64,000 bases of DNA from an uncultured Sphingomonadales bacterium. GTDB lineage: Bacteria; Pseudomonadota; Alphaproteobacteria; Sphingomonadales; CAKZYD01. Location: positions 71,357-135,356 of the forward strand of contig CAZPXQ010000003.1 of assembly GCA_964590595.1 (NCBI GenBank). The letters are read 5' to 3'. Positions 14,301 to 58,059 of the stretch are shown piece after piece. A program made the position numbers and the translations under genes. How positions within the stretch are numbered: position 1 is the stretch's first letter; every line of letters begins with the position of its first letter. The notes under the pieces were generated by a model, which was not told the DNA's origin, did not search any database, and worked only from the letters and a program-made list of their open reading frames with translations.

Positions 14301-14972
14301 AAACCAAGCTGCGTCGGGCATCGCCTTGTCGGCATAATAGCGCCGGAAATCGGCGAAATGTTCGTTGACGATCGCGGCATGTTTTTCCCGCAGTTCAAAT
14401 TCGTCCAAATTTTGGACGCGGCCATTGGGCAGCTTCTTGGTGATTTGCCAAATTTTGTCGATGCCGCAGCCATCGGCGGTCAAGCAAAAGGTGGCCGCAT
14501 GTTGTTCTGGCTTTAATGACAACGCCAGCGCGCGCATGAAATCATCAGCGGCGAAGCGGCGCTGGTCGGGCATCACCGGGAAGCCTTGGCAGCGTTCGAT
14601 CGATGGCGCGAAACGCTCGGCGCCTTCGGAACAGTCGGGATTGGCGCGCAAGAATGCGAGATGCGGCAACAGCCATAGCGACTGATTGTGACGCTGCATT
14701 TGCGCCGACAGGCGGCGGGCAAGCGCCGGATCCGCATTGGCGCGCTGTTGGGCGGTGGCATGGCGGGTCGGATAGGGTGCGATGCCGCCGGTGTCCTGCA
14801 GTCCAATTCGGGGAAGACCGCGCCAGCTATTCAACTCGATCCTGTGAAATTTGGCCGAGTCGGCGCCGATTTGCGTGTTAGCTTGCGCTGGCGCCCAAAT
14901 CCAAATGGCGGCGATCATCATGCTCAAGCCGCCACCAAGCAAAACCCTGCGCCGTTGATGCGAAAATAGCAT
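11316..14972 (-). CDS. Large exported Cys-rich hypothetical protein (~1218 aa; DUF4852-like repeats suspected)
   Basis: Long ORF; signal peptide MLFSHQRRRVLLGGGLSMMIAAIWIWAPAQA; GGGGA upstream of ATG 14972; 18 Cys. Confidence 0.8.
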   Translation of the reverse strand: MLFSHQRRRVLLGGGLSMMIAAIWIWAPAQANTQIGADSAKFHRIELNSWRGLPRIGLQDTGGIAPYPTRHATAQQRANADPALARRLSAQMQRHNQSLWLLPHLAFLRANPDCSEGAERFAPSIERCQGFPVMPDQRRFAADDFMRALALSLKPEQHAATFCLTADGCGIDKIWQITKKLPNGRVQNLDEFELREKHAAIVNEHFADFRRYYADKAMPDAAWFVAASELGAYDFDLRKFSLRLTSPERAMMRQEVPAPRDSSPTPARPKNLTTPRINPVEFVHQPTQQFEKAAKTSSPGMPFLHQPVDLAMTPEAARALVNSMPQGARYVYTVVKIGFAPLKGSGRSYGEISLDSRKQPFYYAENKVEFYRDEALTDKLGEASLVAVAATDPQAKAGSAADLFQAPPDSRIFDTRAFHLLRFPLGPLSPHDRDRMAFMIAENERLFWQQLEVRERTAAQTQPAGGTLQQQQQAKARQQAANNAAQSKSFAWTEAATWSAAQRQAFMDYLLGYGTSPEGKDGSPWPDALAAVDWGMNVATVFPRNHFPTDPAMAGIRADDASLRTLEAFAKALAARYPSSRLTGVYDLGTPRYDQKTGELSFENWPFSTLPESPSVQFTTAAESKFRGVTYTLAHPDAKSRMLYRLALSTASLGTLRPDHYISRCTHSSRRKSMDCGTYWGAFMPVETHSALLALDRQITPPSLRFAPTEGLAHAQARDGWRLVVTFKDISMRLIPYQYSLAGSGNTREIEAQTVLASIEQVAVIAPDDRLIWSVDGATLPAAASLTETLAPKAAQADYAFPDIVGLGADSQLEAAAYDFLLAKYQPQNLSDRMLDAMMSSRWLYERNTQNPLGGRFFNPTARQPSADDTATNRPQFKAWLLNQAQAFPNRLSVDLSLIYTATSMAVNGRCLRAQAVPGAPVRGNTAVILAQQQQRQCQTAHEQALNAHQRCQDIGSEVAAAKAALGKAEAAGCTATAATATAQPSTPEAGAGCRISPDVAPSQLGQEMQRCILQQCGGQPTTLAEVQQFQACMQTAQADLTAQVQAILSGQAPAPNGGAPSKAASQGNSCKTAQSRLYQAEQNYRSARCENHAQAPTPPDCDFVGKVKQPDFMPIQSIKALNDKQCAADQAFYRKQNQAAALLPGGRAYGDTNLTLSLDVGGALKLPYDPPAGHGNPGTPVIAKLILEIQGPATPGEVGIVALTAKPVSVDYAPLRP

Positions 14973-15079
14973 GGATTTTTCCCCTGATTGTATTGCGGTG
15001 CAATGGCACAGCCCGGCCAATGCCAGCCGCGCCATCCAATACTAGGCCGATTGCCCCCGGCCCAATCACACACGCGAAT

Positions 15080-40682: not shown

Positions 40683-41840
40683 TTAAGACGCCTTCGGCAT
40701 CTGCCGTTCCTTGCAAATCTCGACAAAGGGGCGCCGCAATCCCGCCGCTTCCAAACGCGGAAAGACATCGCGAGTCATGCGGGCAACGCCTTCCAATGGG
40801 TCGGGCCAGTTGATCAGCACGCCGTCGACCCCGCAGCTAGCCAGCGATTTCAAGACATCGGCCACGGTGTCGGCATCGCCAGCGATGGGATAACCGCCGC
40901 CGGCGCCGACAATCTTGCTCATCACCTCAAATTGCGGAGTACCTTTTTTCACGCCGCTTTCATCGCTCAAGGTGCCAAGGAATTGGTCCATCGCTTCATT
41001 GTCGCGGAATTCCTGTGTGTAGTGGCGGTGGAAGTCCTTGGCCTCGGCGACGGTATCGCGCTGAATGACGGTGATATTGGAAAAAATTTGCAAATGGCGA
41101 TTGAAATGTTTGCGTGCATAACCGCGATAGTCATCGACTTGCGCTTTCCATTTTTCGGGCTCATTGCCAAGCAGGGAAATGAAGGCGATGTCGGCATGTT
41201 CGGCGGCAAAGGCGCGGCCGGCGGGCGACAGCCCCGCATTCATGATCGGAATCCGGGCCTGGACCGGCTGCGGCCGGCACAAGGCGCCGTGAATCTTGAA
41301 ATATTTGCCATCATGGTTGACTTCATCCGGCGATTCCCACAACGCGCGGACAACCGTCAGCCATTCCGCCAGATATTGATAGCGTTCGTCATGCTCCAGC
41401 AAGTCGATGTCAAACATCGCGAATTCGCGCCGATTCCAACCACCGACGATATTCATGGCAAAGCGGCCGCCCGACAACCGGTCGATGGACGCCGCCTGTT
41501 TGGCGATCAAAACCGGGTGCGCGGTGGGCGCGTTAAGGGTGGTGAACAAGGTGCTGTAACTGGTGACTTGTGTTAACGCGCCGGCCAAAATGAACGGGTC
41601 CATGACATAATTCAGCGGATGATCGGGCTGATTGTCCAAATAGCCTTTCCAGCGGGCAATCGGCACCAAGCCCTCAAAGCCAGCGGCATCAGCCATGCGG
41701 GCGACGCCCAGAATCTGTTCGATCGATGGAATTGGGATGTGTGGCGATATGGTTGGAATGGCGAAATTATTGATGCAGAACGCCGCGATCTTCAACTTGT
41801 TGTCATTGTAAAGCGCATTCGGCTTTTGACGGACTTCCAT
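40683..41840 (-). CDS. Luciferase-like (LLM) flavin-dependent monooxygenase, RutA/SfnG-like
   Basis: [56 protein letters not shown]; AGGAGG SD before ATG 41840. Confidence 0.88.
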
Positions 41841-41868: not shown

Positions 41869-43008
41869 TTAAATCGCTGTCGCCAGCATATCGCGCGAGA
41901 CATCGTCCACCGACCGGACCCCGGAAAAGGCCAGGCTGAGGTCGATTTCGGTGCGAATGATGTCAAGCGCGGTTGAAACGCCGGCTTCGCCATCGGCGGC
42001 CAAGCCAAACAAATGCGCCCGGCCCAACAAGCATCCCTTAGCACCCAACGCCATGGCCTTGAGCACGTCCTGGCCGCTGCGCACGCCGCCATCCAGCAGC
42101 ACTTCGCCACGGCCATTCGCGGCTTCGACCACGCCCGGCAGGGCAGCGATGGTGGACTGGCCCTGGTCGAGGCAATTGCCCCCATGATTGGACACGCTCA
42201 CCGCATCGACGCCGGCATCGAAGGCGGCGCGGGTGTCGTCGGGATGCATGACGCCCTTCAAGATCAGCTTGCCTGGCCAGATTTCGCGCAGCCAGGCGAT
42301 ATAGGACCAGTCGACTTCATCTTCCAACAAGCCGAGAATCGTGCCCAGATCGGCGGTTTGCATGATTGGCTCAAAATTCCCCAATTTGATTGGCCCACCC
42401 AGCAAAGACGCGAGGGTCCAGCGTGGCGTGCGCGCTAATTCCAACAGCGACGACAAGGTCAGTTTTGGCGGCAGCGACGTGGTTCTATTGCGAATGAAAC
42501 GATTGGTGCGGCTGGCGGTGGGCCAGGTGACGGTCACGATGAGTACGGGGCAGCGATGATGCTGGGCGCGATCGACTAATGCTTGGACGACGCCACGGTC
42601 TTTGAGCGGACATAGCTGGAACCATAGTTTTTCGGTGCTGCCCAAAGCAGCCGCCACCTCATCCAGCGAAGCGATCGACATCATGCCCAGCGTAAAAGGA
42701 ATGCCGGCTTTCTGCGCTGCCCGAGCGGCGAGGATCTCAGCCTTGCTGCCGCGCAAGATGCCACTCATGCCGGTGGCGGAGATGGCGACGGGCATGGAAC
42801 AGTCTTGGCCAACCAATTGGGTCGCCAATTTACGGTTGGCGATATTGCGCGCCACCCGCTGCTGGAAGCGAAACTTAGCGAAATCATCGCAATTGGCGCG
42901 CAATGTTGCTTCCTCAAAGCCGGCGCCGTCGATGAAGTCGAAGACCGGCTTGGGCAGCTTGTGCTGCGCTTGCTTCCTCAGATCGGCAATGCTGGCGGCG
43001 GGTTGCAT
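41869..43008 (-). CDS. FMN-dependent oxidase of the alpha-hydroxy-acid oxidase fold, non-canonical active site
   Basis: LILKGV, SNHGG, DGGVRSG, GR FMN motifs; substrate-binding residues altered. Confidence 0.88.
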   Translation of the reverse strand: MQPAASIADLRKQAQHKLPKPVFDFIDGAGFEEATLRANCDDFAKFRFQQRVARNIANRKLATQLVGQDCSMPVAISATGMSGILRGSKAEILAARAAQKAGIPFTLGMMSIASLDEVAAALGSTEKLWFQLCPLKDRGVVQALVDRAQHHRCPVLIVTVTWPTASRTNRFIRNRTTSLPPKLTLSSLLELARTPRWTLASLLGGPIKLGNFEPIMQTADLGTILGLLEDEVDWSYIAWLREIWPGKLILKGVMHPDDTRAAFDAGVDAVSVSNHGGNCLDQGQSTIAALPGVVEAANGRGEVLLDGGVRSGQDVLKAMALGAKGCLLGRAHLFGLAADGEAGVSTALDIIRTEIDLSLAFSGVRSVDDVSRDMLATAI

Positions 43009-43039
43009 GGTTTTTTCCCAATCATGGTTGCGCTGAACG

Positions 43040-43091
43040 AAAAGGGCGCGGCTTGGCTGTTGCTGTCATTCAAAGCCGCACCGCGCCCCTT
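43040..43091 (-). terminator. Stem-loop downstream of the TonB-dependent receptor gene
   Basis: Minus strand GGGCGCGG...CCGCGCCC followed by TTTT. Confidence 0.5.
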
Positions 43092-43109: not shown

Positions 43110-45560
43110 TTAGAAGTTGAAGCCGACTTCAGCGGCGTAATAGCGCGGCGGGCCATAGACCGACCACAGCCACAAGCCGGCGACGGTTTGGCTGGAAACG
43201 CGGTAGCGCTTGTCGCCAATATTACGGACAATGCCGCGGACATAGTATTTGTCGTCTTCGGTCCGATAGGTAACCGACGCATTACCCAGCAGCCGCTTGT
43301 TCAGGAAGCTGTTGGCGGATTCCGCAATCAGCGACTGTGTGTAAAGGCTGCGTGATGAATAGTTCACATTGGCATTGAAGTCGACAAAGCCGCCCGGCGC
43401 CTCAACGGTATAGGTGGCGTCCACCCCCCAAGACCATTTCGGCGTGCGATCAAGCGGTGCCGTGGACAAGTCATAGCCGGCGGGAACTGGCGTTTGGAAT
43501 TCCCGGTAGCCGCCATCCTGGAAGCCCAGATTGCCGCGGATCATCAGATTTTCGATCGGCAGGGCGGTGAGTTCAAGTTCAATACCCTTAACTCGCGCCT
43601 TGGCGGCATTGAAAAAGGTGCTGACTTGGAACGGTTGGCCATTGACCACCAAGGGCACGTTAATCTGCTTTTGTAGATCATTATAGTCGACCCAGAAACC
43701 AGTCAGGTTGAACCGCACCCGGTTATCGAAAAATTGCGTCTTGACGCCAATTTCATAGGAGTCGGCCTTTTCCGGATCGGTTGGGAAAGCCGCAGCGGCA
43801 AATGCATCAAGATTATTGCCGAATGGCGCGAAGGTCCCGATCTGGGTGTTGTAACCGCCAGCCTTGAAACCCCGCGAATAGGACGCATAGGCAAAGATAT
43901 CATCGCTGGCTTCATAGCTCAGGATGAAGCGGTAGGACGGGTCGTCCCAATTCTCGCGCAAGGTGACAACGCCGGCTGGGAAGCGGTCAAAATTCGCTAG
44001 TTCCAGCAGATCGATGTCCTGCCAAGTGGCGTTGGGATCGCCAAGGATGTCTTGGACATAGGCTTGTTGGCGGCCCTGCCAGCGCTTGCGGTCCCAGGTA
44101 TAGCGGAAGCCGCCGGTGGCCTTCAGGCGGTCGGTGATGTCGTAGGTGCCTTCGATATAAGCGGCGACCGACCGGGTCTTTTGGCCATTGCACAGCACAT
44201 GCGCGTTGTCATTGTGGCGGCCGAAGGGCGTACTGCTGCCGACCAAGTCCAGAAAGCCCGCAGATTGCGAAACGCAATAGGAGATGGTGTCATATTGATA
44301 GAATACGCCAGATACGAAGTTGAACGGGCCGGCGAAATCGCTGGTGAAACGCAGCTCCTGTTGCGCGGTTTTACGCACGTGATTGTTAGCGACATCGAAC
44401 AGGCTTAGCCTGTCGCCATCCGCGCCAACCAGGGCGCCGTGGCCGCTGACGCTGCTGGCGTTGAACCAATCTTGCTTGCGATAGCCGGACACTGAGGTGA
44501 ATGTGCCGAAGTCGGTTTCCAAATTCATGTTGAGGTGTACGCCGTCGGCATCGATATAGGCCCGGCCACCGGACACATATTGATCGGGCTTGCGGCTAAA
44601 TCCGCCCGCTTTCAACGGATCGTCGACTTGCTGGGTGATGCCCAGAATATTCCACAAGAACGACATATCGCCGGCTGGGGTTTCATCGACGGCGGCTGGC
44701 GCTTCTGTCTTATCGCGGAGAATTTCATATTGGAACAAAACACTGAAGCGGTCGGTCGCTTGCCACAACACCTTGGCGCGGCCGGCAAAGGCATTGTCGC
44801 CGCCTTCGCGGGCGCCGTCGCCCTGACCGGTGACGCCGAGGAAATCGGGATCGACGACATTGGCTAATGGCCCATAGGGATGGCCGTTGCGCATATAACC
44901 TTTATTGTAATTATAGGCTCCGACCAGCCGCACCGCCAGTTTATCCTCGATGACGGGGATATTGATGGCGCCCTTGATGTCGCGGGTGCCATAGCTGCCA
45001 ATGGTGGCGGAGGCCTTGCCGCTGAACGTGTCAAGTTGCGGCTTAATGGTTTTCACCACCACGGCACCACCGGTGCTGTTCTTGCCAAATAGCGTGCCTT
45101 GCGGGCCGCGCATGACTTCAACTTGTTCGATGTCAAAAGTATCCAGCAACTGTGTCTGGATGCTGTTATAGACAAAATCGTCGACCATGACGACTACGGG
45201 AGGTTCGGAATAGTCGCTGATATTGGTTTGGCCAACGCCACGGATTGCGAACGAGGCGGCGTTGTAGCCGGTGATCTTGGCCGCATCGAAATTAGGTACG
45301 AACACGGCCAGGTCGCCAATATCATTGGGCGCAGCCATTTCGATCATGCTGTTGGACAAGGCGCTAACCGAAATCGCGGTGGTTTGCAGATTGCTCTCGC
45401 GCCGGGTGGCGGACACCACCACTTCTTCCAATTGCCCGAAGCCTCCGGTACCGATGTCCGGCGCGGCATTCTGGTCTTGCGCGGCGGCCGGTGCAACCAG
45501 CGCCGCGACCACGGCCCAGGATGCATAGTGCAGCAATGATCTTTTTTGGTGTCTCGTCAT
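43110..45560 (-). CDS. TonB-dependent receptor
   Basis: Signal peptide, LEEVVVSATRRE, plug motif IEQVEVMRGPQGTLFGKNSTGGAV, C-terminal Phe. Confidence 0.95.
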   Translation of the reverse strand: MTRHQKRSLLHYASWAVVAALVAPAAAQDQNAAPDIGTGGFGQLEEVVVSATRRESNLQTTAISVSALSNSMIEMAAPNDIGDLAVFVPNFDAAKITGYNAASFAIRGVGQTNISDYSEPPVVVMVDDFVYNSIQTQLLDTFDIEQVEVMRGPQGTLFGKNSTGGAVVVKTIKPQLDTFSGKASATIGSYGTRDIKGAINIPVIEDKLAVRLVGAYNYNKGYMRNGHPYGPLANVVDPDFLGVTGQGDGAREGGDNAFAGRAKVLWQATDRFSVLFQYEILRDKTEAPAAVDETPAGDMSFLWNILGITQQVDDPLKAGGFSRKPDQYVSGGRAYIDADGVHLNMNLETDFGTFTSVSGYRKQDWFNASSVSGHGALVGADGDRLSLFDVANNHVRKTAQQELRFTSDFAGPFNFVSGVFYQYDTISYCVSQSAGFLDLVGSSTPFGRHNDNAHVLCNGQKTRSVAAYIEGTYDITDRLKATGGFRYTWDRKRWQGRQQAYVQDILGDPNATWQDIDLLELANFDRFPAGVVTLRENWDDPSYRFILSYEASDDIFAYASYSRGFKAGGYNTQIGTFAPFGNNLDAFAAAAFPTDPEKADSYEIGVKTQFFDNRVRFNLTGFWVDYNDLQKQINVPLVVNGQPFQVSTFFNAAKARVKGIELELTALPIENLMIRGNLGFQDGGYREFQTPVPAGYDLSTAPLDRTPKWSWGVDATYTVEAPGGFVDFNANVNYSSRSLYTQSLIAESANSFLNKRLLGNASVTYRTEDDKYYVRGIVRNIGDKRYRVSSQTVAGLWLWSVYGPPRYYAAEVGFNF

Positions 45561-45634: not shown

Positions 45635-46876
45635 TTAGTCGCTCCGCTTTTCAAAACGAATTGGCAGACTCTCCAGGCGCCGGATCACCAGGCCAGGAAT
45701 GTATTTGATGTCCTCGGGCGAGCAGGCGAAGGCGAAATTTTCGCACCGCTCCAGCAGCCGTTCGAAAGAGACTTGCATTTCTTGGCGCGCCAGTGGTGCG
45801 CCAATGCAGTGGTGCGCGCCTTGATTGAAAGCCATGTGCGAGCCGGCGTTGCGTCGCTCTAGGTCCAAGGCCTCGGGGCAGCCGAAATGGCGTTCATCGC
45901 GATTGGCGGCACCGAAGCGGATGTGAATCGGCGTTCCCTTCTTGATCGGCCGGCCATTCAACTCGGTATCAATGCGTGCGAAGCGCCACAAGCCCTGGGT
46001 TGGCGATTCCAGGCGCAGCGCCTCTTCCACGAAGGTGCGTATTTTATTCGTCGACTGCCGTAAAGCCTGCTCCAGGCCATCGGTTTCGATCATCAATTTC
46101 ATTGCCAAGCCGATGGCGTTCATGGTCGTTTCATTGCCGCCAGTGACCAAGGTTTCGCCAATCGCCGCTAATTCGCGGTCATTCAGCGGCCGGCCTTCAG
46201 GCGTGCGGGCGGTCACGACATCTGATAAAATGTCTTCCTTCGGGTTGCGGCGTTTCACCTCGAACCAGTCCAGCAAATAGCGTTGAAACGCGACGGCGGC
46301 TTCCGCCACTTCGATTTCGCCCGCTTCATCCAAATTCTGTTGAAATGGCCGCGCCCACATGTCGGCCCAATATTTCAACTGCGGCATGTCTTCCAGCGGC
46401 AGGCCAAGGCGCTCGGTGATCACAGTCATGGGCAGCGGCAGGCAGAAATGCTCGATGAATTCCACTGGCGACTCCATGCGATCGATCAGATCATCGATGA
46501 TCTCACGGACACGCCATTCCAGCTTCTTGACACGCGATGCCGTAAAGGAGCGCTCGACAATCGTGCGATAGGCGCTGTGCAAGGGGTCGTCGACGGTAAA
46601 GGGCTGCACCCGCGGAAAACCCTTTTCACGATAAATTGCCAGCGCTTTTTCCGATTTGATCAGACCGTCGCCGCCCTGGCCGTCGGTGCTGGCGGCATAA
46701 ATATCGGGCTTGCGAATGACTTCGGCAATATCATCATAGCGGGTGACAACCAGCCAATCGGTCTCGGGATGCGGATAAAGCGGCGCTTCGTCGCGCAGGG
46801 TTTTATATGCCGTGTAGGGGCATGCCTGCACTTGCGGATCAAACAGATTGACCGACGGATATTCCACTTTAGACAT
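45635..46876 (-). CDS. Cytochrome P450
   Basis: I-helix GGNETT, EALR, AANRD, heme motif FNQGAHHCIG. Confidence 0.96.
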   Translation of the reverse strand: MSKVEYPSVNLFDPQVQACPYTAYKTLRDEAPLYPHPETDWLVVTRYDDIAEVIRKPDIYAASTDGQGGDGLIKSEKALAIYREKGFPRVQPFTVDDPLHSAYRTIVERSFTASRVKKLEWRVREIIDDLIDRMESPVEFIEHFCLPLPMTVITERLGLPLEDMPQLKYWADMWARPFQQNLDEAGEIEVAEAAVAFQRYLLDWFEVKRRNPKEDILSDVVTARTPEGRPLNDRELAAIGETLVTGGNETTMNAIGLAMKLMIETDGLEQALRQSTNKIRTFVEEALRLESPTQGLWRFARIDTELNGRPIKKGTPIHIRFGAANRDERHFGCPEALDLERRNAGSHMAFNQGAHHCIGAPLARQEMQVSFERLLERCENFAFACSPEDIKYIPGLVIRRLESLPIRFEKRSD

Positions 46877-47435
46877 GAATAAACTCGCCTCGTTGCAGTC
46901 GTCTCAGCATCAAGGATCAAAGCATAGTGTTTTGAAACTAAATGATGGGTGAGACCCTAAAGGATCGGTTGCGGGCCAGGCAATATGGGGTCTTGGCTGA
47001 GGCTGTCATATAGTGTTGAACAAGACTGAGGTTGGCCTCAAATTGAAAATTCACGGGGATGATCGCCATCAGCTGCGGTGCAAATGATTTGTATAAGCAC
47101 TTATGGCGCGCCCCTTGGCGCTGTGCGGAATCCCCTCGCAAGACAGCAGCCCTGGCGAAAAAGTGAGGTTTCGCGCCGCATCAAGCAACCATAGTCTATC
47201 ATTCCGCTTGATTCGAATAACAGTCCGTGGGACGGCCACCGCAAGAAGGGCGCGAAGACCCTTGGACGACGCGACCAACAGCAGCGAGTTTTGCCGCAGA
47301 GTGATCGGCGGGTTGACTGAGACTGTGAAAGGCGCGTTTGCCGCGCGCCGTGCTAGCCATGTCAATTGCTTTGATTGCGGCTTTGACTTTATACTTTTGC
47401 AAAACACAAAGTGTTTTTTTTGGGGAGACGCGCAC

Positions 47436-48407
47436 ATGGGTGGGGAACGCTGCGACTTTTCGGACTATGTTCAGAAAGTCCTGGGTGAATACGGGCCTCA
47501 AGACATTGACCTGCAAGAGAGCGCGGCCAATTTTCGCGGCGCCTATGCCTATCTGGAATTAGGCTGGGCGCGGGTGTTCAAGCTTCAGACCAATATGGGA
47601 TGGCTGACCAAAAGGCGCGCTAACGCGGCGCGGCGTGATGAGCATTTTGTGTTGACGCTGCTGCAAAAGGGCGCCTTTTCCATCACCCAACGCGGCCAAA
47701 CCGCGCATTGTTCGCCCAACAATATCAGCTTTCTCAGCGATTCCGCGGTACTGGAATCGATGTATCAAGGCGAGGTCGAGGTTTTGGCTATTCGGTTTCC
47801 ATCGCGATTGGTGCGGGCTTATTTCCCGGCGGCGGATCGGATCTGCGGTCGCGCGGTGGAAACGGAGTCTGGCTGCGCCGCCGCGGTGACCGATTTGATG
47901 TTGCGCATTTGGCGCGAGCATCAAAGCGCCGATAAATTATGTATTGAAGCCTTGCTGAACTGTATCATGCGGTTGCTGGAAGGCGCGTTCATGCCAGACG
48001 GCGCGCCGGCGGTGGAATCGGGCCATGACCATCATTTGCGAAGAGTGCGGCAATTGGTCGATCGCGAGTTTACCGATCCCAAATTGTCGGCACGGTCGAT
48101 CGCCAAAAGCCTGGGTTTGTCGGAAGGCTATTTACACGCGGCAGTGCGCGGTTCTGGCAGCACGGTTGGCGAGATGATTTTCGAGAAACGGCTGGAAGCA
48201 TGCCAACGGCAATTGGTTGACCCAGCGCTGCGGCAAAGAACCGTAACGGAAATAGCCTTTGGCTCAGGCTTTTCAAGCCTGCCGCATTTCAGCCGACGGT
48301 TCAAGGAACGCTATGGCTGCTCGCCACTGGAATATCGTCGCCAAATGCTGACCTTTAACGCGCTTGCGGAACATGGATATCAAGCATCGATGATGGCCCA
48401 TGCATAG
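47436..48407 (+). CDS. AraC-family transcriptional regulator (FeaR-like ligand domain)
   Basis: C-terminal TVTEIAFGSGFSSLPHFSRRFKERYGCSPLEYR; GGGGAG SD before ATG 47436. Confidence 0.92.
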   Translation: MGGERCDFSDYVQKVLGEYGPQDIDLQESAANFRGAYAYLELGWARVFKLQTNMGWLTKRRANAARRDEHFVLTLLQKGAFSITQRGQTAHCSPNNISFLSDSAVLESMYQGEVEVLAIRFPSRLVRAYFPAADRICGRAVETESGCAAAVTDLMLRIWREHQSADKLCIEALLNCIMRLLEGAFMPDGAPAVESGHDHHLRRVRQLVDREFTDPKLSARSIAKSLGLSEGYLHAAVRGSGSTVGEMIFEKRLEACQRQLVDPALRQRTVTEIAFGSGFSSLPHFSRRFKERYGCSPLEYRRQMLTFNALAEHGYQASMMAHA

Positions 48408-48510
48408 ACGCCGGCCGGCGTTTATTGCATAAATGCTAAAACGAAATAGGGCACGAAAGCAGCGTGAGCCAAGCGCCAGGCAGTGTTGCGTCAAATTGAG
48501 GAGAACAAGA

Positions 48511-50475
48511 ATGTCATTGCGCCATGTGCTCAGCCCCATTGCCATCGGCCCGGTCGAGCTGGCCAATCGCGTGGTGCGTACCGGCCATGGGACCGGCATT
48601 GGCGGCGGAACCATGAACGATGCCTTGATCGACTATCATGTCGCAAGAGCCCGCGGCGGTGTTGGCTTGACGATTCTGGAACTACTGTCGGTCCATCACT
48701 CGGCCTATCCGTTTTTTGTCGCTGGCGCGCCGGGATTGGTCGAAGGCTATGGCAAGCTGATGGAGCAGGTGCGTCCGCTGGGCATGCGGGTGTTCCAACA
48801 GATTGGCCATTTGGGCAATGAAATTCCGCAAGCTGATGGTGGCCCGCCGATTTCATCCTCCGACACCGCCGGCGCCATGGTCGGTGTGCCTTCGGAGCCG
48901 ATGACCAAGGCGCAAATCGCGGAGATGATCGACTGCTATATCGCCGCCGCCAAGCAATGCATCGCCGGCGGCCTGGATGGCATTGAATTGCACATGGCGC
49001 ATGGCTATTTGGTGCAGCAGTTTTTGTCACCGCTATATAATTTCCGGGACGATGAATATGGCGGCGATTTTGAAAACCGTGCGCGGCTGGCGCTGGAATT
49101 GTTGCGTGCCGTGCGCGGCGTGTTGCCGTCCTCTATGGCGCTGGGCGTGCGCCTGAGCAGCGAAGCTCTGCCCGGCGGCATGAACAGCGACGATGTCGCC
49201 CGGCTGGCTAATCTGTTTCATAGCGAAGGGTTGATCGATTATGTCAACCTGACCTTGGGCACCGATTATAATCCGCACAAGATCATTGGCGCCATGCATG
49301 AACCGGTGGGTTATGAGATCCCCTATGGGGCGCCGGTGAAGGCGGCAGTGAAATTGCCGGTGCTGGTCACTGGGCGATTCCGCACGCTGGAGGAAGCCGA
49401 TCAAGTGATTGGCGGTGGCGATGCCGATTTGGTGGCTTTGACGCGCGCGCATATCGCCGGCCCTGACATCGTGCGCAAAACCATTGCCGGACGGGAAGAG
49501 GAAATTCGTCCCTGCATTGGCTGCAATCATGGTTGCATTGGCGGTTTGCTGTCGGCCGGCCGCATTGGGTGCACCGTGAATGTCGCCGTCGGCCAGGAAG
49601 CGACTTTAGCGGAAGATTTGATCGCGCCCAGCGCGCAGCCCAAGACCGTGTTGGTGGTGGGCGGCGGTCCAGCTGGATTGGAGGCAGCAAGGGTCGCGGC
49701 CTTGAAGGGGCACCGGGTGATCCTGGCGGAAGCCGCGCATGAGCTGGGCGGTGCCATTAATATCGCCAAGCGCGCACCACGGCGCCTCGGCATTGCCGAC
49801 ATCACCGACTGGCTGGAGCGTGAAATTTTCCGCCTTGGCGTGGAAGTGCGCCTCAGCACATATGTCGAGGCTGAAGATGTCACAGCGATTGCGCCTGATG
49901 TGGTCATTGTCGCCACTGGCTCGCTACCGCGCATGGACGGTAAGCAGTTCTTGTCTCCCGGCCAAGTCGCCGATGGCATGGAACGGCGTCACGTCGTTTC
50001 CAGCCATGATTTGCTGCTTGAGCACAGCAACCGCGACTGGGGGCAGCGCGCTTTGGTTTATGACGATGCCGGCCATTATGAGGGGGTCGCCGCCGCCGAG
50101 TTCTTGATTGAGAAGGGCCTGGCCGTCACCTATGCCACCGGCCACAGCCGGTTCGCGCCGGGGCTTGAGGCCAGTTTGTCGGCGGAACCGGCGCTTGAGC
50201 GGCTGGCGAAGGGCGATTTTCGGCTCATCACCTATGCGCGGCTGGCGGCGGTTGAAGACGGCGCCGCGCGCATCGATTTCCGCTATGGCGGCAGCCCGGT
50301 CGAGGTGGCGGCGGACACAGTGGTGTTTGTGTCCCACAATAGCAGCAATCGCGAGCTGGCCGACACATTGGCGGATTGGCCGGGCGCGGTGCATTTGGTG
50401 GGCGATGCCCGCAGCCCGCGCTATTTGCAAACCGCGATTCGCGAGGGTCATTTGGCGGCCCGGCAGATCGATTAG
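48511..50475 (+). CDS. FadH/OYE-type NADH:flavin oxidoreductase with 4Fe-4S cluster and FAD domain
   Basis: RARGGVGL, ELHMAHGYL..QFLSP..NFRDDEYGG, CIGCNHGC-x-C, GGGPAGLEAA; GAGGAG SD. Confidence 0.92.
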   Translation: MSLRHVLSPIAIGPVELANRVVRTGHGTGIGGGTMNDALIDYHVARARGGVGLTILELLSVHHSAYPFFVAGAPGLVEGYGKLMEQVRPLGMRVFQQIGHLGNEIPQADGGPPISSSDTAGAMVGVPSEPMTKAQIAEMIDCYIAAAKQCIAGGLDGIELHMAHGYLVQQFLSPLYNFRDDEYGGDFENRARLALELLRAVRGVLPSSMALGVRLSSEALPGGMNSDDVARLANLFHSEGLIDYVNLTLGTDYNPHKIIGAMHEPVGYEIPYGAPVKAAVKLPVLVTGRFRTLEEADQVIGGGDADLVALTRAHIAGPDIVRKTIAGREEEIRPCIGCNHGCIGGLLSAGRIGCTVNVAVGQEATLAEDLIAPSAQPKTVLVVGGGPAGLEAARVAALKGHRVILAEAAHELGGAINIAKRAPRRLGIADITDWLEREIFRLGVEVRLSTYVEAEDVTAIAPDVVIVATGSLPRMDGKQFLSPGQVADGMERRHVVSSHDLLLEHSNRDWGQRALVYDDAGHYEGVAAAEFLIEKGLAVTYATGHSRFAPGLEASLSAEPALERLAKGDFRLITYARLAAVEDGAARIDFRYGGSPVEVAADTVVFVSHNSSNRELADTLADWPGAVHLVGDARSPRYLQTAIREGHLAARQID

Positions 50476-51047
50476 GCTTCGGTCTTGGCACCGCCGACAA
50501 AGGCGCACATCAGCAGATCGTCGCAATAGCGGCCATCGCGAAATTTGATGGCGCGGGCGCGGCGGCCTTCTTCGAGAAAGCCCAATTGCCGGTATAGCGC
50601 CAGTGCTGGGGTGTTGCCGGCATGGACATGCAGTTCCACCCGCTCGATGCCGGGATGGTTGCGGGCCCAATCCAGCGCCCGGTGCATCAGTGCGCGGCCC
50701 AGGCCGCGCCCTTGCCAATCGGGGTCGATGGCCAAACCCAGGGTGACGGCGTGGCGGCGGCGCCAGCGTGGCTCACCCCGGCAATCCAACATGCCGACCA
50801 GTGCGCCGTCGGCGGCCTGGGCCACCAAATACAAGCCATCGGGATTGTCGCGTTGCAGCAGGATCCAACGCTTTTCGCCACGCGGGGCGATGTCATATTC
50901 GGCGACTTCCTGCACCATGTGCGTGGCGCTGGCCAGCACCCGCCGGGTCAAGCCAATCAACGCCCGAGCATCCCGCGCTTGCGCCGAACGCAGCATCAAC
51001 ACCGCGCCGTCTCTCCCTTGCCAAGCCATCGGTTGCAGTTGTGCCAT
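50472..51047 (-). CDS. GNAT N-acetyltransferase
   Basis: WQGRGLGRALM, LHVHAGNTPALALYRQLGF. Confidence 0.9.
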   Translation of the reverse strand: MAQLQPMAWQGRDGAVLMLRSAQARDARALIGLTRRVLASATHMVQEVAEYDIAPRGEKRWILLQRDNPDGLYLVAQAADGALVGMLDCRGEPRWRRRHAVTLGLAIDPDWQGRGLGRALMHRALDWARNHPGIERVELHVHAGNTPALALYRQLGFLEEGRRARAIKFRDGRYCDDLLMCAFVGGAKTEA

Positions 51048-51073
51048 CAACAGAGCTCTATTCCGGCCGCCTC

Positions 51074-52933
51074 ATGTCTGCTAGTCATTTGAACGCGGGA
51101 ACAACGGCGGAGCAAGCGATGAATTGGCGGCCATGGCGGGGCGAAGGAGCGGTTTACGCGCTGATTGGCGGGTTGGCAGGCTTGGCGATTTGCTGGTTGG
51201 ACGAAGCCGGCTTCAGCTTTTGGAACTTGCCTTATTTCGACACCTCCGCCGCCGCTGGGGTGTTCGCGGCGGCGCTGTTCTTCATGCTGGCCGACCGCCA
51301 GGACCATCAGGACCGCCGTGGCGCGGTGGCGGCGGCGGCCCTGGTCATGGGCGGCCTGATCGCGTTGATGGCTTATGCGATGCGCGCGCGGTATGGCGGT
51401 CCCTGGGCCAGCATGGGCGCGCGGCACATGGCGGCGCCGGTCATCACCCTGTTTTTCTGGATCAGCCTGCCGTTTTTCCAGGCCTGGAACGAGCGCCGCG
51501 ACTGGCGCTTCGACTATGGCCGGCTCGCTGATCTGGCCTGGAGCGACGTGCTGCGGGCGGTGTTGGGGTTGCTGTTCGTCGGCGTGCTGTGGGCGGTGCT
51601 GGGCTTGTGGATGACCCTGTTCAGCGCCATCGGCATCGATTTCTTCAAGGACCTGTTCACCGACAAATGGGCCGGTTTCGGCATTTCCGGGGCGGCCGCC
51701 GGCATTGCCCTGGCCTTGCTGGCGCGCTGGACGGTGGCGATCGAACGCCTGCACGGCCTGCTGCATGGCCTGTTCGCGGTGCTGGCCGTGCTGGTGGCGG
51801 TATTGGTGTTGGCGTTCGTGCCCAGCTTGGTGTTCGCGCGCCTGGATGCCCTATGGGGCTCGACATTGACCACCGGCTTGATGCTCAGCCTGATCCTGCT
51901 CAGCTTGCTGCTGGTCAACAGCGTGATTGGTGCCCGCGACGCCGACATGCCGGCCAATCGCCGCCATATCTACCGGCTTTCGGCGCTGGTATTGATTGTC
52001 GCCTTGCCGGTGCTGGCGTTGCTTGCCAGCCTGTCGCTGGGCCAGCGCATTAGCGCTTTTGGTCTGACGCCGGATCGTTTCTATGGTGCGGTGGCGCTGG
52101 TGCTGGCGTTTTTGTTTGGCGGTGGCTATGTGGGCGCGCTGGCATGGCGGCGGGGCGGTTGGCCCGCGGCGGTGCGGCAGGTCAATCTGGTGCTGGCACC
52201 CGTGGTGGCGTTGGTGGCGTTTCTGCTGGCAACGCCGATTCTAAGCGCCGAAGCCTGGTCGGTGCGCCATCAGCTTGCCCGGCTGACGAGCGGCACGGTC
52301 AGTGTCGCCGATTTCGATTTTGATTTCCTCCGCTTTCGTGCCGGCACGGCGGGGGCCGCCGCGCTGGAGCGGCTGCTGACCTTGAAGGACCACCCCAACC
52401 ATGACGCGCTGGCGCAAGCGGTGGCGGCGGCCAAGGCGCGGACATCGCCTTATTCTTCCTTCGCGCCGCTGCCGGTGACGGACGCGCGCGGCAGCCTGGG
52501 GCATTGGGTGGAGACCGGCCAGGTCGCCATCTGGCCCGATGCGCAGGCGGTGCCGCAAGAGGTGTTGGACCGGCCGCTGGCAATGATGCCGCCGGGCGGT
52601 TGTCAGCCGGCGGATGCCGATTTGCCGCCTTGTTTCCTGTTGGCGTCGCCCGCTCCGGGTGAGGCTGGCGGGCCATGGCTGTTGATTGCATTTTTCGATG
52701 CCGGCAATGCCAAACGCGTGGTCTTGCAGGTGCTGACGGCCGAGGGCGATGGGCCCTTGCCGCGGCGGGCCGGCAGCGTGGTCGATCTCAGCGGTGATGC
52801 CGATGCCTTGCAGGCGGCCCTGGCTGAAGGCGATATCAGACTGGAGCCGAGGCCCGTTCAAGCCATCCACGTCGGCGATTTCGTGTTCGAGCCAGCGCCG
52901 GGCTATGTCTTGCGGCCAGTCCCTGGAGAATAG
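51074..52933 (+). CDS. Polytopic membrane protein (DUF4153-like)
   Basis: Many TM helices, RISAFGLTPDRFY, SVRHQLARL, DFDFDFLRF; start uncertain (51074 or 51119). Confidence 0.7.
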   Translation: MSASHLNAGTTAEQAMNWRPWRGEGAVYALIGGLAGLAICWLDEAGFSFWNLPYFDTSAAAGVFAAALFFMLADRQDHQDRRGAVAAAALVMGGLIALMAYAMRARYGGPWASMGARHMAAPVITLFFWISLPFFQAWNERRDWRFDYGRLADLAWSDVLRAVLGLLFVGVLWAVLGLWMTLFSAIGIDFFKDLFTDKWAGFGISGAAAGIALALLARWTVAIERLHGLLHGLFAVLAVLVAVLVLAFVPSLVFARLDALWGSTLTTGLMLSLILLSLLLVNSVIGARDADMPANRRHIYRLSALVLIVALPVLALLASLSLGQRISAFGLTPDRFYGAVALVLAFLFGGGYVGALAWRRGGWPAAVRQVNLVLAPVVALVAFLLATPILSAEAWSVRHQLARLTSGTVSVADFDFDFLRFRAGTAGAAALERLLTLKDHPNHDALAQAVAAAKARTSPYSSFAPLPVTDARGSLGHWVETGQVAIWPDAQAVPQEVLDRPLAMMPPGGCQPADADLPPCFLLASPAPGEAGGPWLLIAFFDAGNAKRVVLQVLTAEGDGPLPRRAGSVVDLSGDADALQAALAEGDIRLEPRPVQAIHVGDFVFEPAPGYVLRPVPGE

Positions 52934-56312: not shown

Positions 56313-56870
56313 GTGATGGCAGGGGGCCGCTCGGCCCGCATGGGCCGCGACAAGGCGGCCTTGGACTGGCACGGCGTGAGCCTGCTTCAACATATGAAGA
56401 CCGTGTTGGCCCAGTCTGGCGCCAACCCGGTTTGGGCGGGCGGTGGTGGTTATGATCTGCCCGACCTGGTCGCTGACGCCGGACCGGTGTCCAGCTTGTG
56501 CGCCTTGGCGGCGGCGGTGACGGCACAGCGCCTGCCCGACACTTGGCTGATCACGCCGGTCGACATGCCCTTGCTGACACCCGCGATGTTGCGGCGGCTG
56601 CTGGAGGGCGGCGCTCAGGCCGCGCATTTTAGCGGCCAGCCCTTGCCTTTGCGGTTGCGGTTCGATGATAGCCTCAAAGCGGCCAGCGCGGCCATAGCCG
56701 CGCGCCTGGTCGCCGGCGAAAGTGTCGCCATCCGCAGCCTGCTCGATTGCGTGCAGACATCGGTGCTGGCACCAACGCCGGACGAAGCCGCGTGCCTGGT
56801 TGGCGCCAATACCGAAGCGGAATTCGCCGCGCTCAGGACACCGCCGCCAAAATTTCCTTCAGCGGAATAG
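56313..56870 (+). CDS. mobA: MobA-like molybdenum cofactor guanylyltransferase
   Basis: AGGRSARMGRDKA, DAGP, PVDMPLL; true start may be CTG at 56283. Confidence 0.75.
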   Translation: MMAGGRSARMGRDKAALDWHGVSLLQHMKTVLAQSGANPVWAGGGGYDLPDLVADAGPVSSLCALAAAVTAQRLPDTWLITPVDMPLLTPAMLRRLLEGGAQAAHFSGQPLPLRLRFDDSLKAASAAIAARLVAGESVAIRSLLDCVQTSVLAPTPDEAACLVGANTEAEFAALRTPPPKFPSAE

Positions 56871-58059
56871 ATGCATCGGCCAATTGGTCGGCGGGCAACA
56901 CCTGTTTGCTGGCGATCAAATTGCGCGCGCCCATATGATCGGCGGGTGAATTGACACAGTCCGAGGCAATCATCCGCCCCGCCCGCAGATAGAATACCGC
57001 GAATTTTCGATGCGCCATATTACCACGCACGACAATTTCGTCATAGCCCTCAAGCAAGCCATGGGTGAGCAATTTAAGGTCATATTGATCCGACCAAAAG
57101 CTGGGCACGCCATGCCAGGGCACGGGTTTGCCGCAAATGTCGAGGGCCGCCGCCTTGGCTTGCTCAACCGCATTCTGGACCGACTCCAGGCGGACCCTGC
57201 GTTCATATAAGGTATTGAAATGATTGGCGACATCGCCGGCGGCGTAAATGTCGGCATCATCGGTGCGGGAATTGGCGTCAACCCAGATGCCATTGTCGCA
57301 GTAGAGCCCGGCCTCGGCGGCGATTTCCTGGTTTGGCACCACGCCGATGCCGACAATGACCAGATTGGCCGCGATTTTCTCGCCATCCTTCAGCACCGCA
57401 TGACTGACCGCGCCAGCGCCTTCAAAATGCGACAAGCCGGCGGAGAGGCGGATATCGACCCCGGCGGCGCGATGATAATCTTGATAATATTCCGATATCA
57501 GCGGGCTAGAGACCCGCGCCAAGACCCGGTCGGCGGCTTCGATCACGGTCACCTTCATGCCGTTCTTGACCGCCACGGCGGCGACCTCAAGGCCGATATA
57601 GCCGGCGCCGACGATGGCGATGGATTCGCTGTTGGCGAAATGCGGCTTGATCCGCTCGACATCGTCAATGCCGCGCAGGCTAAAAATATTCCCCAAATCC
57701 GCGCCGGCCACCGGCAATAGCCGTGGCCGGGTGCCGGTGGCGATGATCAGCTTGCTATAGGCCAGCGTTTCACCATCGGCCAGCCGCACGGTTTTGCCAG
57801 CACGATCGATGGCGACGACCCGCGCGTCTGTGCGGCAGGTGATGGCCTTGGTTTCGTAAAAATTTTCCGGCCGCAGGAACAAGCGGGACAATTCCAGCTT
57901 GCCGGCCAGGAAATCCTTGGACAAGGGCGGCCGCTGATAGGGCAGATAGGGTTCTTCGCCCAAGATCAGCACTTCGCCGTCATAACCGCTTTGACGCAAG
58001 CTGATAGCCGCTTGGCCCCCGGCATGGCCGGCGCCAATGATGATAATACGTTCGTTCAC
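56833..58059 (-). CDS. Ferredoxin reductase (putidaredoxin reductase-like FAD/NADH oxidoreductase)
   Basis: GAGHAG, YQRPPLSK, GAGYIGLE, RLESVQNA, FWSDQYD. Confidence 0.9.
   Translation of the reverse strand: MNERIIIIGAGHAGGQAAISLRQSGYDGEVLILGEEPYLPYQRPPLSKDFLAGKLELSRLFLRPENFYETKAITCRTDARVVAIDRAGKTVRLADGETLAYSKLIIATGTRPRLLPVAGADLGNIFSLRGIDDVERIKPHFANSESIAIVGAGYIGLEVAAVAVKNGMKVTVIEAADRVLARVSSPLISEYYQDYHRAAGVDIRLSAGLSHFEGAGAVSHAVLKDGEKIAANLVIVGIGVVPNQEIAAEAGLYCDNGIWVDANSRTDDADIYAAGDVANHFNTLYERRVRLESVQNAVEQAKAAALDICGKPVPWHGVPSFWSDQYDLKLLTHGLLEGYDEIVVRGNMAHRKFAVFYLRAGRMIASDCVNSPADHMGARNLIASKQVLPADQLADASIPLKEILAAVS

Follow-up and report, generated by a model that had tools for sequence, protein, structure and literature searches.

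A gene in a 64,000-nucleotide stretch of DNA from an uncultured Sphingomonadales bacterium (positions 71,357 to 135,356 of contig CAZPXQ010000003.1, assembly GCA_964590595.1; hereafter the window) encodes an alpha-hydroxy-acid oxidase/dehydrogenase homologue (FMN_dh) in which all five residues that anchor the substrate carboxylate are replaced, while the flavin machinery is kept. The same replacements are conserved in a monophyletic clade. The protein is probably a membrane-associated dehydrogenase for an uncharged alpha-hydroxy-carbonyl intermediate, with a pocket rebuilt from a carboxylate site into a neutral, hydrophobic one. The gene is placed as follows:

41869..43008, minus strand: variant FMN_dh (alpha-hydroxy-acid oxidase/dehydrogenase fold), 379 amino acids (aa), identified by PF01070, the structural model and alignment to 6bfg

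The translated protein matched PF01070 (FMN_dh) with 369.5 bits against a cut-off of 24.9, residues 14-376 aligning with profile positions 1-349 of 350. It contains the motifs FDFIDG, WFQLCP, TVTWPTASRT, LKGV, SNHGGNCLD, DGGVRSG and GR, which an earlier account of the gene (the preliminary description) had quoted correctly together with its exact coordinates; the strand had not been given there. The mechanism of alpha-hydroxy-acid oxidases and dehydrogenases is defined in textbooks by a set of Tyr, Arg, His and Asp residues around the carboxylate, and in canonical enzymes Asp157 pairs with the catalytic His. Numbered as in glycolate oxidase (GOX), these sites are taken to be Tyr24, Tyr129, Asp157, Arg164, His254 and Arg257, in agreement with the preliminary description. 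Residues were paired by HMMER pairwise alignment to full-length (S)-mandelate dehydrogenase (MDH; 6bfg), which is gapless across the critical stretches, and were counted along the chain. MDH Y26, Y131, D158, R165, H274 and R277 correspond to F25, C133, T161, T168, H275 and N278, confirming that Tyr24, Tyr129, Asp157, Arg164 and Arg257 have all been lost, as had been proposed. Both Tyr are thus missing (F25 and C133), the carboxylate-binding Arg pair has become T168 and N278 (SNHGGNC in place of SNHGGRQ), and the partner of the catalytic His is T161. For Tyr24, the replacement by Phe stood and only its exact position was refined, the counterpart being the second Phe of FDF (F25) and not the first. 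The catalytic His (H275), the FMN Lys (K251) and the FMN-phosphate motifs DGGVRSG and GR are retained, also as described. The alignment had been suggested beforehand as a check for conserved or compensated Tyr and Arg residues, and it has every one of the five sites replaced and no shifted copy of Arg164. The basic residue R170, two residues past T168, is no displaced Arg164: a basic residue also occupies that place in MDH and in most canonical sequences.

To place these replacements within the family, 124 sequences were aligned, comprising 119 of the 120 top-scoring database clusters (without P0065, a fragment of 284 aa), the two other paralogues of the genome, a Croceicoccus copy (L022), Escherichia coli LldD and Pseudomonas aeruginosa LldA. 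The alignment split into 64 variant, 57 canonical and 3 intermediate rows, the variant rows standing for 63 distinct genes with one gene counted twice (P0012 and the copy on contig C2). The residues at the key sites, in a pattern well beyond chance, were (variant n=64, canonical n=57):

Tyr24 (query 25): variant F52, W10, L1, Y1; canonical Y57
Tyr129 (query 133): variant C56, A4, F2, S1, V1; canonical Y57
Asp157 (query 161): variant T59, S5; canonical D57
Arg164 (query 168): variant Q27, T14, L8, M7, H4, F2, N1, A1; canonical R57
Lys230 (query 251): variant K64; canonical K57
His254 (query 275): variant H64; canonical H57
Arg257 (query 278): variant N60, I4; canonical R57

Among the intermediates, P0060 has lost Arg257 alone, and P0063 and P0096 keep Asp157 with Tyr129, Arg164 and Arg257 lost. 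D306 and G308 are invariant in the 64-sequence alignment, and R310 and R330 are at least 90% conserved. Other clade-specific changes are S108G, T109M, L162W, F140L, F228L, H87G and a one-residue deletion at 127, and charged residues have been lost at H169, D171 and R207. In a FastTree phylogeny that included LldD sequences, as the preliminary description had advised, the 64 variant rows formed one monophyletic clade (SH-like support 99) apart from the 57 canonical rows. Pairwise identity inside the clade ranges from 41 to 100%, with a median of 56%, and the subclades differ at the Arg164 position (T, Q, M/L or H), as expected for a specificity determinant. Since the replacements are conserved in a monophyletic clade down to 41% identity, the new pocket is under selection, and the variant site marks a conserved lineage, not gene decay. 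A separate observation concerns His332 (window about 42013-42015, minus strand), which sits two residues past the FMN-phosphate Arg of the GR motif. It is present in 61 of the 64 clade members at a site where canonical proteins have F, Y or W, and it could be a new catalytic or binding residue compensating for the lost Asp157.

The clade is rare. An exhaustive search of 1.84 billion 50%-identity representatives returned a single clade representative, P0002 (533 bits), followed by matches of 344 bits (a 719-aa multi-stretch protein) and then 314 bits. The Arg257 column of the 150 nearest representatives holds R in 138, N in two (the query and P0002), V, K and I in two each, L, T and F in one each, and one gap; Asp157 is absent from these representatives only in the clade (T) and in P0322 (N), apart from one fragment. 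A pattern scan of the species representatives reached found 12 loci in 9 assemblies. There was no clade-level match in 200 other genomes sampled from the same order (the single other match was 42% identical) and no clade member among the PLSDB plasmids (best match 45.5% identical), and a search of the ESM Atlas returned generic alpha-hydroxy-acid oxidase and LldD clusters only. The nearest canonical sequences are 42-47% identical to the query. Two fused proteins were also encountered in these searches: P0188 (719 aa), in which three separate stretches match the query and which resembles a tandem FMN_dh, and P0134 (424 aa), which combines FMN_dh with peptidase M20 domains.

An AlphaFold2 model built from the 64-sequence alignment had a mean pLDDT of 94.1 and a pTM of 0.93, with the barrel intact. 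Its best Foldseek match was 6bfg, entitled 'monotopic membrane protein (S)-mandelate dehydrogenase' (TMq 0.94, TMt 0.95, rmsd 1.4 A over 380 columns); for the soluble oxidases of glycolate, hydroxy acids and mandelate, TMq was 0.81-0.87 (1gox, 0.85). As modelled, the protein contains the loop-4 membrane segment of LldD/MDH-type dehydrogenases. Gly80, which corresponds to MDH Gly81, is invariant in the clade, and the choice of Gly or Ala at this site tunes oxygen reactivity. The p-hydroxymandelate oxidase Hmo has Ala79 at the same site, according to the available part of its report (PMC6677016). The membrane-dehydrogenase architecture and the invariant Gly80 together argue for a quinone-linked dehydrogenase rather than an H2O2-forming oxidase. 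The electron acceptor is thus probably a quinone and not O2, and, given this architecture, the H2O2 read-out put forward in the preliminary description may be the wrong one. Based on the alignment and the model, we consider it reasonably likely that the enzyme is a functional FMN dehydrogenase with the membrane-associated architecture of LldD and mandelate dehydrogenase, and FMN binding is predicted.

Among characterized proteins, MdlB of Pseudomonas putida (6bfg) was the best match in both sequence (E 6e-63, 34% identity) and structure (TM 0.94/0.95). The two have in common the catalytic His, the flavin Lys, the Gly81 equivalent, the FMN-phosphate motifs and the predicted loop-4 membrane segment. 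They differ in that Y26, Y131, D158, R165 and R277 of MDH are F, C, T, T and N here, and in that the gene context is not a mandelate pathway. LldD of E. coli (b3605) and LldA of P. aeruginosa belong to the same Pfam family and length class, and both keep the Y/Y/D/R/R set.

Experimental precedent for such replacements comes from Hmo. In the available part of the report, this enzyme anchors its hydroxy acid by Tyr128, Arg163, His252 and Arg255; the R163A, H252F and R255A mutants lose activity, R163L converts (S)-mandelamide to 2-oxo-2-phenylacetamide, and Y128F stays active but as a 'monooxygenase-like' four-electron oxidative decarboxylase (PMC6677016). The wild-type enzyme has Phe24, so that Tyr24 is not strictly defining (PMC6677016). 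PDB entries for Hmo Y128C, Y128F and R163L with 2-hydroxy-phenylacetamide (6a3t, 5zzx, 5zzz) were among the structural matches to our model. In Hmo, then, acid oxidation disappears once an Arg is removed and neutral alpha-hydroxy carbonyls gain access to the site; the clade has fixed this change naturally. The likeness lies in single changes at positions that are altered in the clade. The Hmo variants, however, are laboratory single mutants, with R163L and the others placed in a soluble oxidase that retains Arg255 and the Asp, whereas the clade is natural, has all five positions changed together and has a membrane-dehydrogenase architecture.

A reaction of the type proposed here is known from the L-pantolactone dehydrogenases of Nocardia, Rhodococcus and Amycolatopsis, described in the available part of their report as membrane-bound FMN enzymes that oxidize an alpha-hydroxy-lactone to a keto-lactone (PMC10384591). 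They were the only characterized neutral-substrate enzymes that turned up in our literature search. These actinobacterial enzymes are likened to the present one by reaction and not by sequence. We presume that they are PF01070 members, and we know of none from catabolic islands of the kind described below.

The FMN_dh gene lies in a six-gene island of about 10 kb (40.7-50.5 kb of the window) between ruvX-pyrB-pyrC-plsY and DUF4153-gatA-gatB. Its neighbours in the island are:

40683..41840, minus strand: luciferase-like monooxygenase (LLM), 385 aa, assigned by Pfam, SfnG/RutA-like
43035..43089, minus strand: terminator-like hairpin with U-tract, between the genes for the TonB receptor and FMN_dh
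43110..45560, minus strand: TonB-dependent outer-membrane receptor, 816 aa, with plug and beta-barrel, below all substrate-specific NCBIfam cut-offs
45635..46876, minus strand: cytochrome P450, 413 aa, assigned by Pfam and NCBIfam
47103..48407, plus strand: divergent AraC-family regulator, best NCBIfam match FeaR (124.6 bits against 199)
48433..50475, plus strand: FadH/OYE-type FMN/FAD flavoenzyme, 680 aa, with 2,4-dienoyl-CoA reductase/BaiCD/TMADH architecture (503 bits against 793)

The GC content of the island is 0.55-0.59, compared with 0.62-0.65 in the flanks, and the distance from ruvX to gatA is 12.6 kb, compared with 2.1 kb in four of five same-family genomes (both genes on one contig). 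This enlarged gap indicates that the island was acquired; its borders showed no convincing flanking repeats. The LLM gene starts with GGAGG-N7-ATG (41840), 28 nt past the FMN_dh stop. Its nearest solved relatives are FMNH2-dependent, namely the dimethylsulfone monooxygenase SfnG (103 bits) and the pyrimidine monooxygenase RutA (97 bits), and it falls below every NCBIfam cut-off. In the 98-nt spacer between the receptor gene and FMN_dh, a U-tract comes directly after a GC-rich hairpin (dG -36.9 kcal/mol, z -3.3; none of 200 shuffles was as stable). The consensus terminator scan, which had a loop limit of 8, missed this hairpin, and the consensus promoter and terminator scans remained at chance level. 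Given the terminator-like hairpin upstream, FMN_dh and LLM may form a bicistronic unit of their own. The nearest solved relatives of the P450 and of the FadH/OYE enzyme were a mixed set that did not narrow the substrate.

Three further features of the window were noted around the island. A putidaredoxin-reductase-like ferredoxin reductase (Pyr_redox_2 + Reductase_C; 56833-58059, minus strand) is encoded 6 kb beyond it and could serve the island P450, which is not accompanied by redox partner genes. The DUF4153 membrane-protein gene at the island edge (50768-52933, plus strand) had no match at E<=1e-20 in five same-family genomes, although the 2.1-kb gap between ruvX and gatA there is as large as this gene, which either evolves fast or has been replaced. 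A 1239-aa open reading frame at 11316-15035 (minus strand) has a coding-like GC3 of 0.71 and no Pfam match at E<=1e-8.

The assembly (2.23 Mb in 17 contigs, 74% complete) has FMN_dh in three full-length copies, each a variant and each on its own branch of the clade; no canonical LldD was seen in it at this completeness. One paralogue, 65% identical to the FMN_dh of the window, lies in a catabolic island of about 26 kb on contig C2 (about 85.4-108 kb). This island also encodes three LLMs (one of them 73% identical to the LLM of the window), a Rieske oxygenase, zinc-dependent alcohol dehydrogenases (ADHs), short-chain dehydrogenases/reductases (SDRs), an enoyl-CoA hydratase, an amidohydrolase_2 protein, a P450 (42%), a TonB receptor, and SnoaL_4 and glyoxalase-fold proteins. 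At its end, a LuxR regulator gene precedes an integrase and a phage capsid gene, and the island may be part of, or lie beside, a mobile element. A locus from another assembly, L012, is syntenic with the C2 island, its FMN_dh, LLM and P450 being 65%, 66% and 44% identical to those of the window. FMN_dh, this type of LLM and a related P450 co-occur in all three subclade-A loci with enough context, namely the window, the C2 island and L012. The paralogue on contig C5 (L024:9923-11443) is 506 aa long and carries a C-terminal extension of about 120 aa (L024:11060-11443) with no Pfam match; the long form is common to P0040 and P0041 (506 and 507 aa), and the extension is conserved in one subclade.

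Neighbours within about 7 kb of FMN_dh were surveyed in 13 loci, leaving out L014 and L020, which are too short. TetR regulators were found at 8 of the 13 loci, TonB-dependent receptors and SDRs at 7 each, a lone Rieske alpha-subunit and a FadH/OYE flavoenzyme at 5 each, and a KstD/ChcC1-like FAD enzyme and a P450 at 3 each. As judged from these genes, the context of the clade points to the catabolism of hydrophobic compounds and not to lactate use. Several of the loci come from records with unexpected titles: Candidatus Kuenenia stuttgartiensis for L013, L015 and L019, and uncultured Bifidobacterium sp. for L014. The loci in them are of the sphingomonad type and include TonB receptors along with three variant copies of FMN_dh. 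Mis-binning of these contigs or mislabelling of the records is the probable cause. When a class-level search was centred on the 'Bifidobacterium' genome, its outcome resembled that of a non-actinobacterial sample.

These elements can be combined into a candidate pathway. By alignment and model, the pocket positions are now Phe/Trp, Cys, Thr, Trp, Asn, Gly and Met, and both Arg, both Tyr hydroxyls and the Asp are gone. Because the flavin, His275 and the flavin-N1 residue Lys251 are kept, the enzyme has most likely retained the ability to take a proton and a hydride from a C-H beside a carbonyl. We infer the class of substrate and the order of steps to be the following. The TonB receptor would import a hydrophobic, probably alicyclic, compound and the P450 would hydroxylate it. 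FMN_dh would then oxidize an acyloin, alpha-hydroxy-lactone or alpha-hydroxy-lactam arising from its breakdown to a 1,2-dicarbonyl. In this oxidation, His275 would deprotonate the alpha-hydroxyl (or amine) and the alpha-hydride would pass to flavin N5, with the Asn278 amide holding the neutral substrate carbonyl in place of the Arg salt bridge; the electrons would leave to quinone. The putatively co-transcribed, FMNH2-dependent LLM would attack the 1,2-dicarbonyl with a flavin (hydro)peroxide, cleaving a C-C or C-O bond. A more specific version of this pathway is speculative and, in our view, rather doubtful. It would be a new activity in which a membrane FMN dehydrogenase makes a 1,2-dicarbonyl from a neutral alicyclic acyloin or alpha-hydroxy-lactone and works in a fixed pair with a RutA/SfnG-like dicarbonyl-cleaving monooxygenase, giving an as yet undescribed two-flavoenzyme, NAD(P)H-sparing module for cleaving rings or chains of terpenoid- or steroid-like compounds, in which FMN_dh may also supply reduced flavin. 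A specific link to a bile-salt pathway was considered and dropped: the available parts of the Sphingobium Chol11 preprints (10.1101/2021.05.19.444901 and 10.1101/2021.06.24.449856) make no mention of lactate dehydrogenase, FMN, luciferase-like or Baeyer-Villiger enzymes.

Other explanations have to be weighed against a dehydrogenase for an uncharged substrate. An ordinary L-lactate or 2-hydroxy-acid dehydrogenase in which other residues hold the carboxylate would agree with the fold and the predicted membrane segment, which match LldD/MDH-type enzymes, with the basic residues gained in the clade, and with the native Phe of Hmo at the Tyr24 site (PMC6677016, available part). The highest-scoring NCBIfam model for the query is also that of the LldD subfamily (NF008398), yet its 317.4 bits lie below the cut-off of 376, and the other LldD model (NF033901) and the L-lactate oxidase model (TIGR02708) gave 278.9 bits against 550 and 139 bits against 645.5, respectively. 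Moreover, none of the five substrate-anchoring residues is kept and their substitutes are conserved, Arg257 is kept in 138 of the 150 nearest representatives with Asn found there only in the clade, and the equivalent single Arg-to-Ala mutants of Hmo are inactive in the available part of that study (PMC6677016). No lactate permease was seen among the 131 neighbour open reading frames scanned, and the target gene has no lldP or lldR neighbours, unlike the lldPRD operon of E. coli, being flanked instead by LLM, TonB receptor, P450, AraC and FadH/OYE genes. Identity as a lactate or 2-hydroxy-acid dehydrogenase is thus very unlikely. The preliminary description had rejected this identity too, and the missed LldD cut-offs, the inactivity of the Hmo Arg mutants on acids and the non-lactate gene context all support that rejection. 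It had also foreseen that automated annotation would call the gene lldD: clade members do carry the source name 'L-lactate dehydrogenase (cytochrome)', and every member with a source name is annotated as an L-lactate dehydrogenase or an alpha-hydroxy acid oxidase. Its suggestion of a non-carboxylate substrate is what we infer as the best reading of the evidence. An oxidative deaminase resembling MftD, which would act on the C-N bond of an alpha-amino amide or lactam to give an imine and then an alpha-keto amide and ammonia, is unlikely, although somewhat less so. A neutral pocket with Asn for Arg257 would also suit an alpha-amino carbonyl, and MftD, itself a member of the family, acts on a non-carboxylate by converting an alpha-amino lactam to an alpha-keto amide (PMC11778925, available part). 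In addition, the best match of the AraC regulator is FeaR, a regulator of aromatic-amine catabolism (at 124.6 bits, below 199), and the FadH/OYE enzyme shares its architecture with histamine and trimethylamine dehydrogenases, its best NCBIfam match being a mycofactocin-associated family (503 bits, below 793). The preliminary description had likened the protein to MftD by the motif SNHGGN, presumably present in MftD as well. A link to MftD was not supported: the MftD model (TIGR03966) gave 254.5 bits against a cut-off of 470.85, less than the LldD subfamily score, and the best score in the genome (266 bits) came from another paralogue. Among the nearest relatives scanned, none of 126 representatives (of 148 outside the clade) reached MftD at E<=1e-115 with NCBIfam, and a search with residues 245-335 around HGGN found no MftD-named protein among the 120 best matches. 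The maturase MftC (TIGR03962), the one mycofactocin protein searched for, reached at best 53 bits against 265 in this 74% complete genome, and an MftD family search of 81 genomes around the 'Bifidobacterium'-labelled genome, probably an alphaproteobacterial mis-bin, found it in 0 of 81. Oxygenases, SDRs and ring-ketone enzymes predominate around the clade members rather than proteins that handle amines or ammonia. The likeness to MftD is an analogy only, and nothing ties the protein specifically to MftD.

The remaining two explanations concern the role of the flavin and whether the protein is active at all. FMN_dh could be a substrate-driven flavin reductase that hands reduced FMN to the adjacent two-component LLM. 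The 28-nt distance between the two genes and the lack of a flavin reductase gene in the six-gene island would favour this, as would the assay of the related L-pantolactone dehydrogenases by reduction of added free FMN (PMC10384591, available part). However, the two genes adjoin in the window only, with LLM 8-12 kb away in the two sister islands (C2 and L012), and most clade members have no nearby LLM. Members of the FMN_dh family also bind FMN tightly as a prosthetic group, and we regard this role as improbable. Finally, the gene could be what is left of an LldD-type gene, catalytically dead or without redox function, in that Asp157 and both Arg are lost, changes that cripple catalysis in canonical enzymes (for the Arg mutants, PMC6677016, available part). 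This is extremely unlikely, as the reading frame is intact and the model confident, the FMN-binding residues, the His and the Lys do not vary in 64 sequences whose identity falls as low as 41%, three paralogues on separate branches persist in the genome, and the gene is coupled to the downstream LLM.

A membrane-associated dehydrogenase for an uncharged alpha-hydroxy carbonyl therefore remains our preferred reading, and several observations weigh against it. The feature that the proposed mechanism explains least well is the loss of Asp157, replaced by T or S in 64 of 64 clade rows, which could weaken base catalysis or signal different chemistry. Basic residues have been gained in the clade (R/K54, K/R99, R/K142, R200 and H332), and one of those at 54, 99, 142, 200 or 332 may point into the pocket and partly rebuild an anion site. 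Every neighbour match lies below its equivalog cut-off. The co-occurrence of FMN_dh, LLM and P450 is suggestive rather than strong because two of the three loci are in one genome. The separation of LLM from FMN_dh outside the window and the lack of a dedicated reductase for LLM in the island count in the same direction. Some loci of the clade also differ in content: L013 and L018 are without the receptor and oxygenase genes and have enone-reductase-type ADHs and histidine kinases instead (and, in L013 only, an MFS transporter), and L017, L019 and L021 have mainly TetR, with or without FadH/OYE.

Taken together, these results define a new variant lineage in a well-known enzyme family, carried in acquired catabolic islands. 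To our knowledge, MftD is the single known case of this fold acting on an uncharged substrate, and a natural lineage that drops five key residues and keeps the flavin machinery suggests that the fold has been recruited for uncharged substrates beyond MftD. If this is true, it would add a new reaction type to the pathways for hydrophobic-compound catabolism. Since the members with a source name are annotated as L-lactate dehydrogenase or alpha-hydroxy acid oxidase, metabolic reconstructions wrongly credit their hosts with lactate oxidation, and the residue signature F/W25, C133, T/S161 and N/I278 would let annotators separate the clade. Its members may also be biocatalysts for alpha-hydroxy ketones, lactones and amides, for which engineered mutants have been needed so far.

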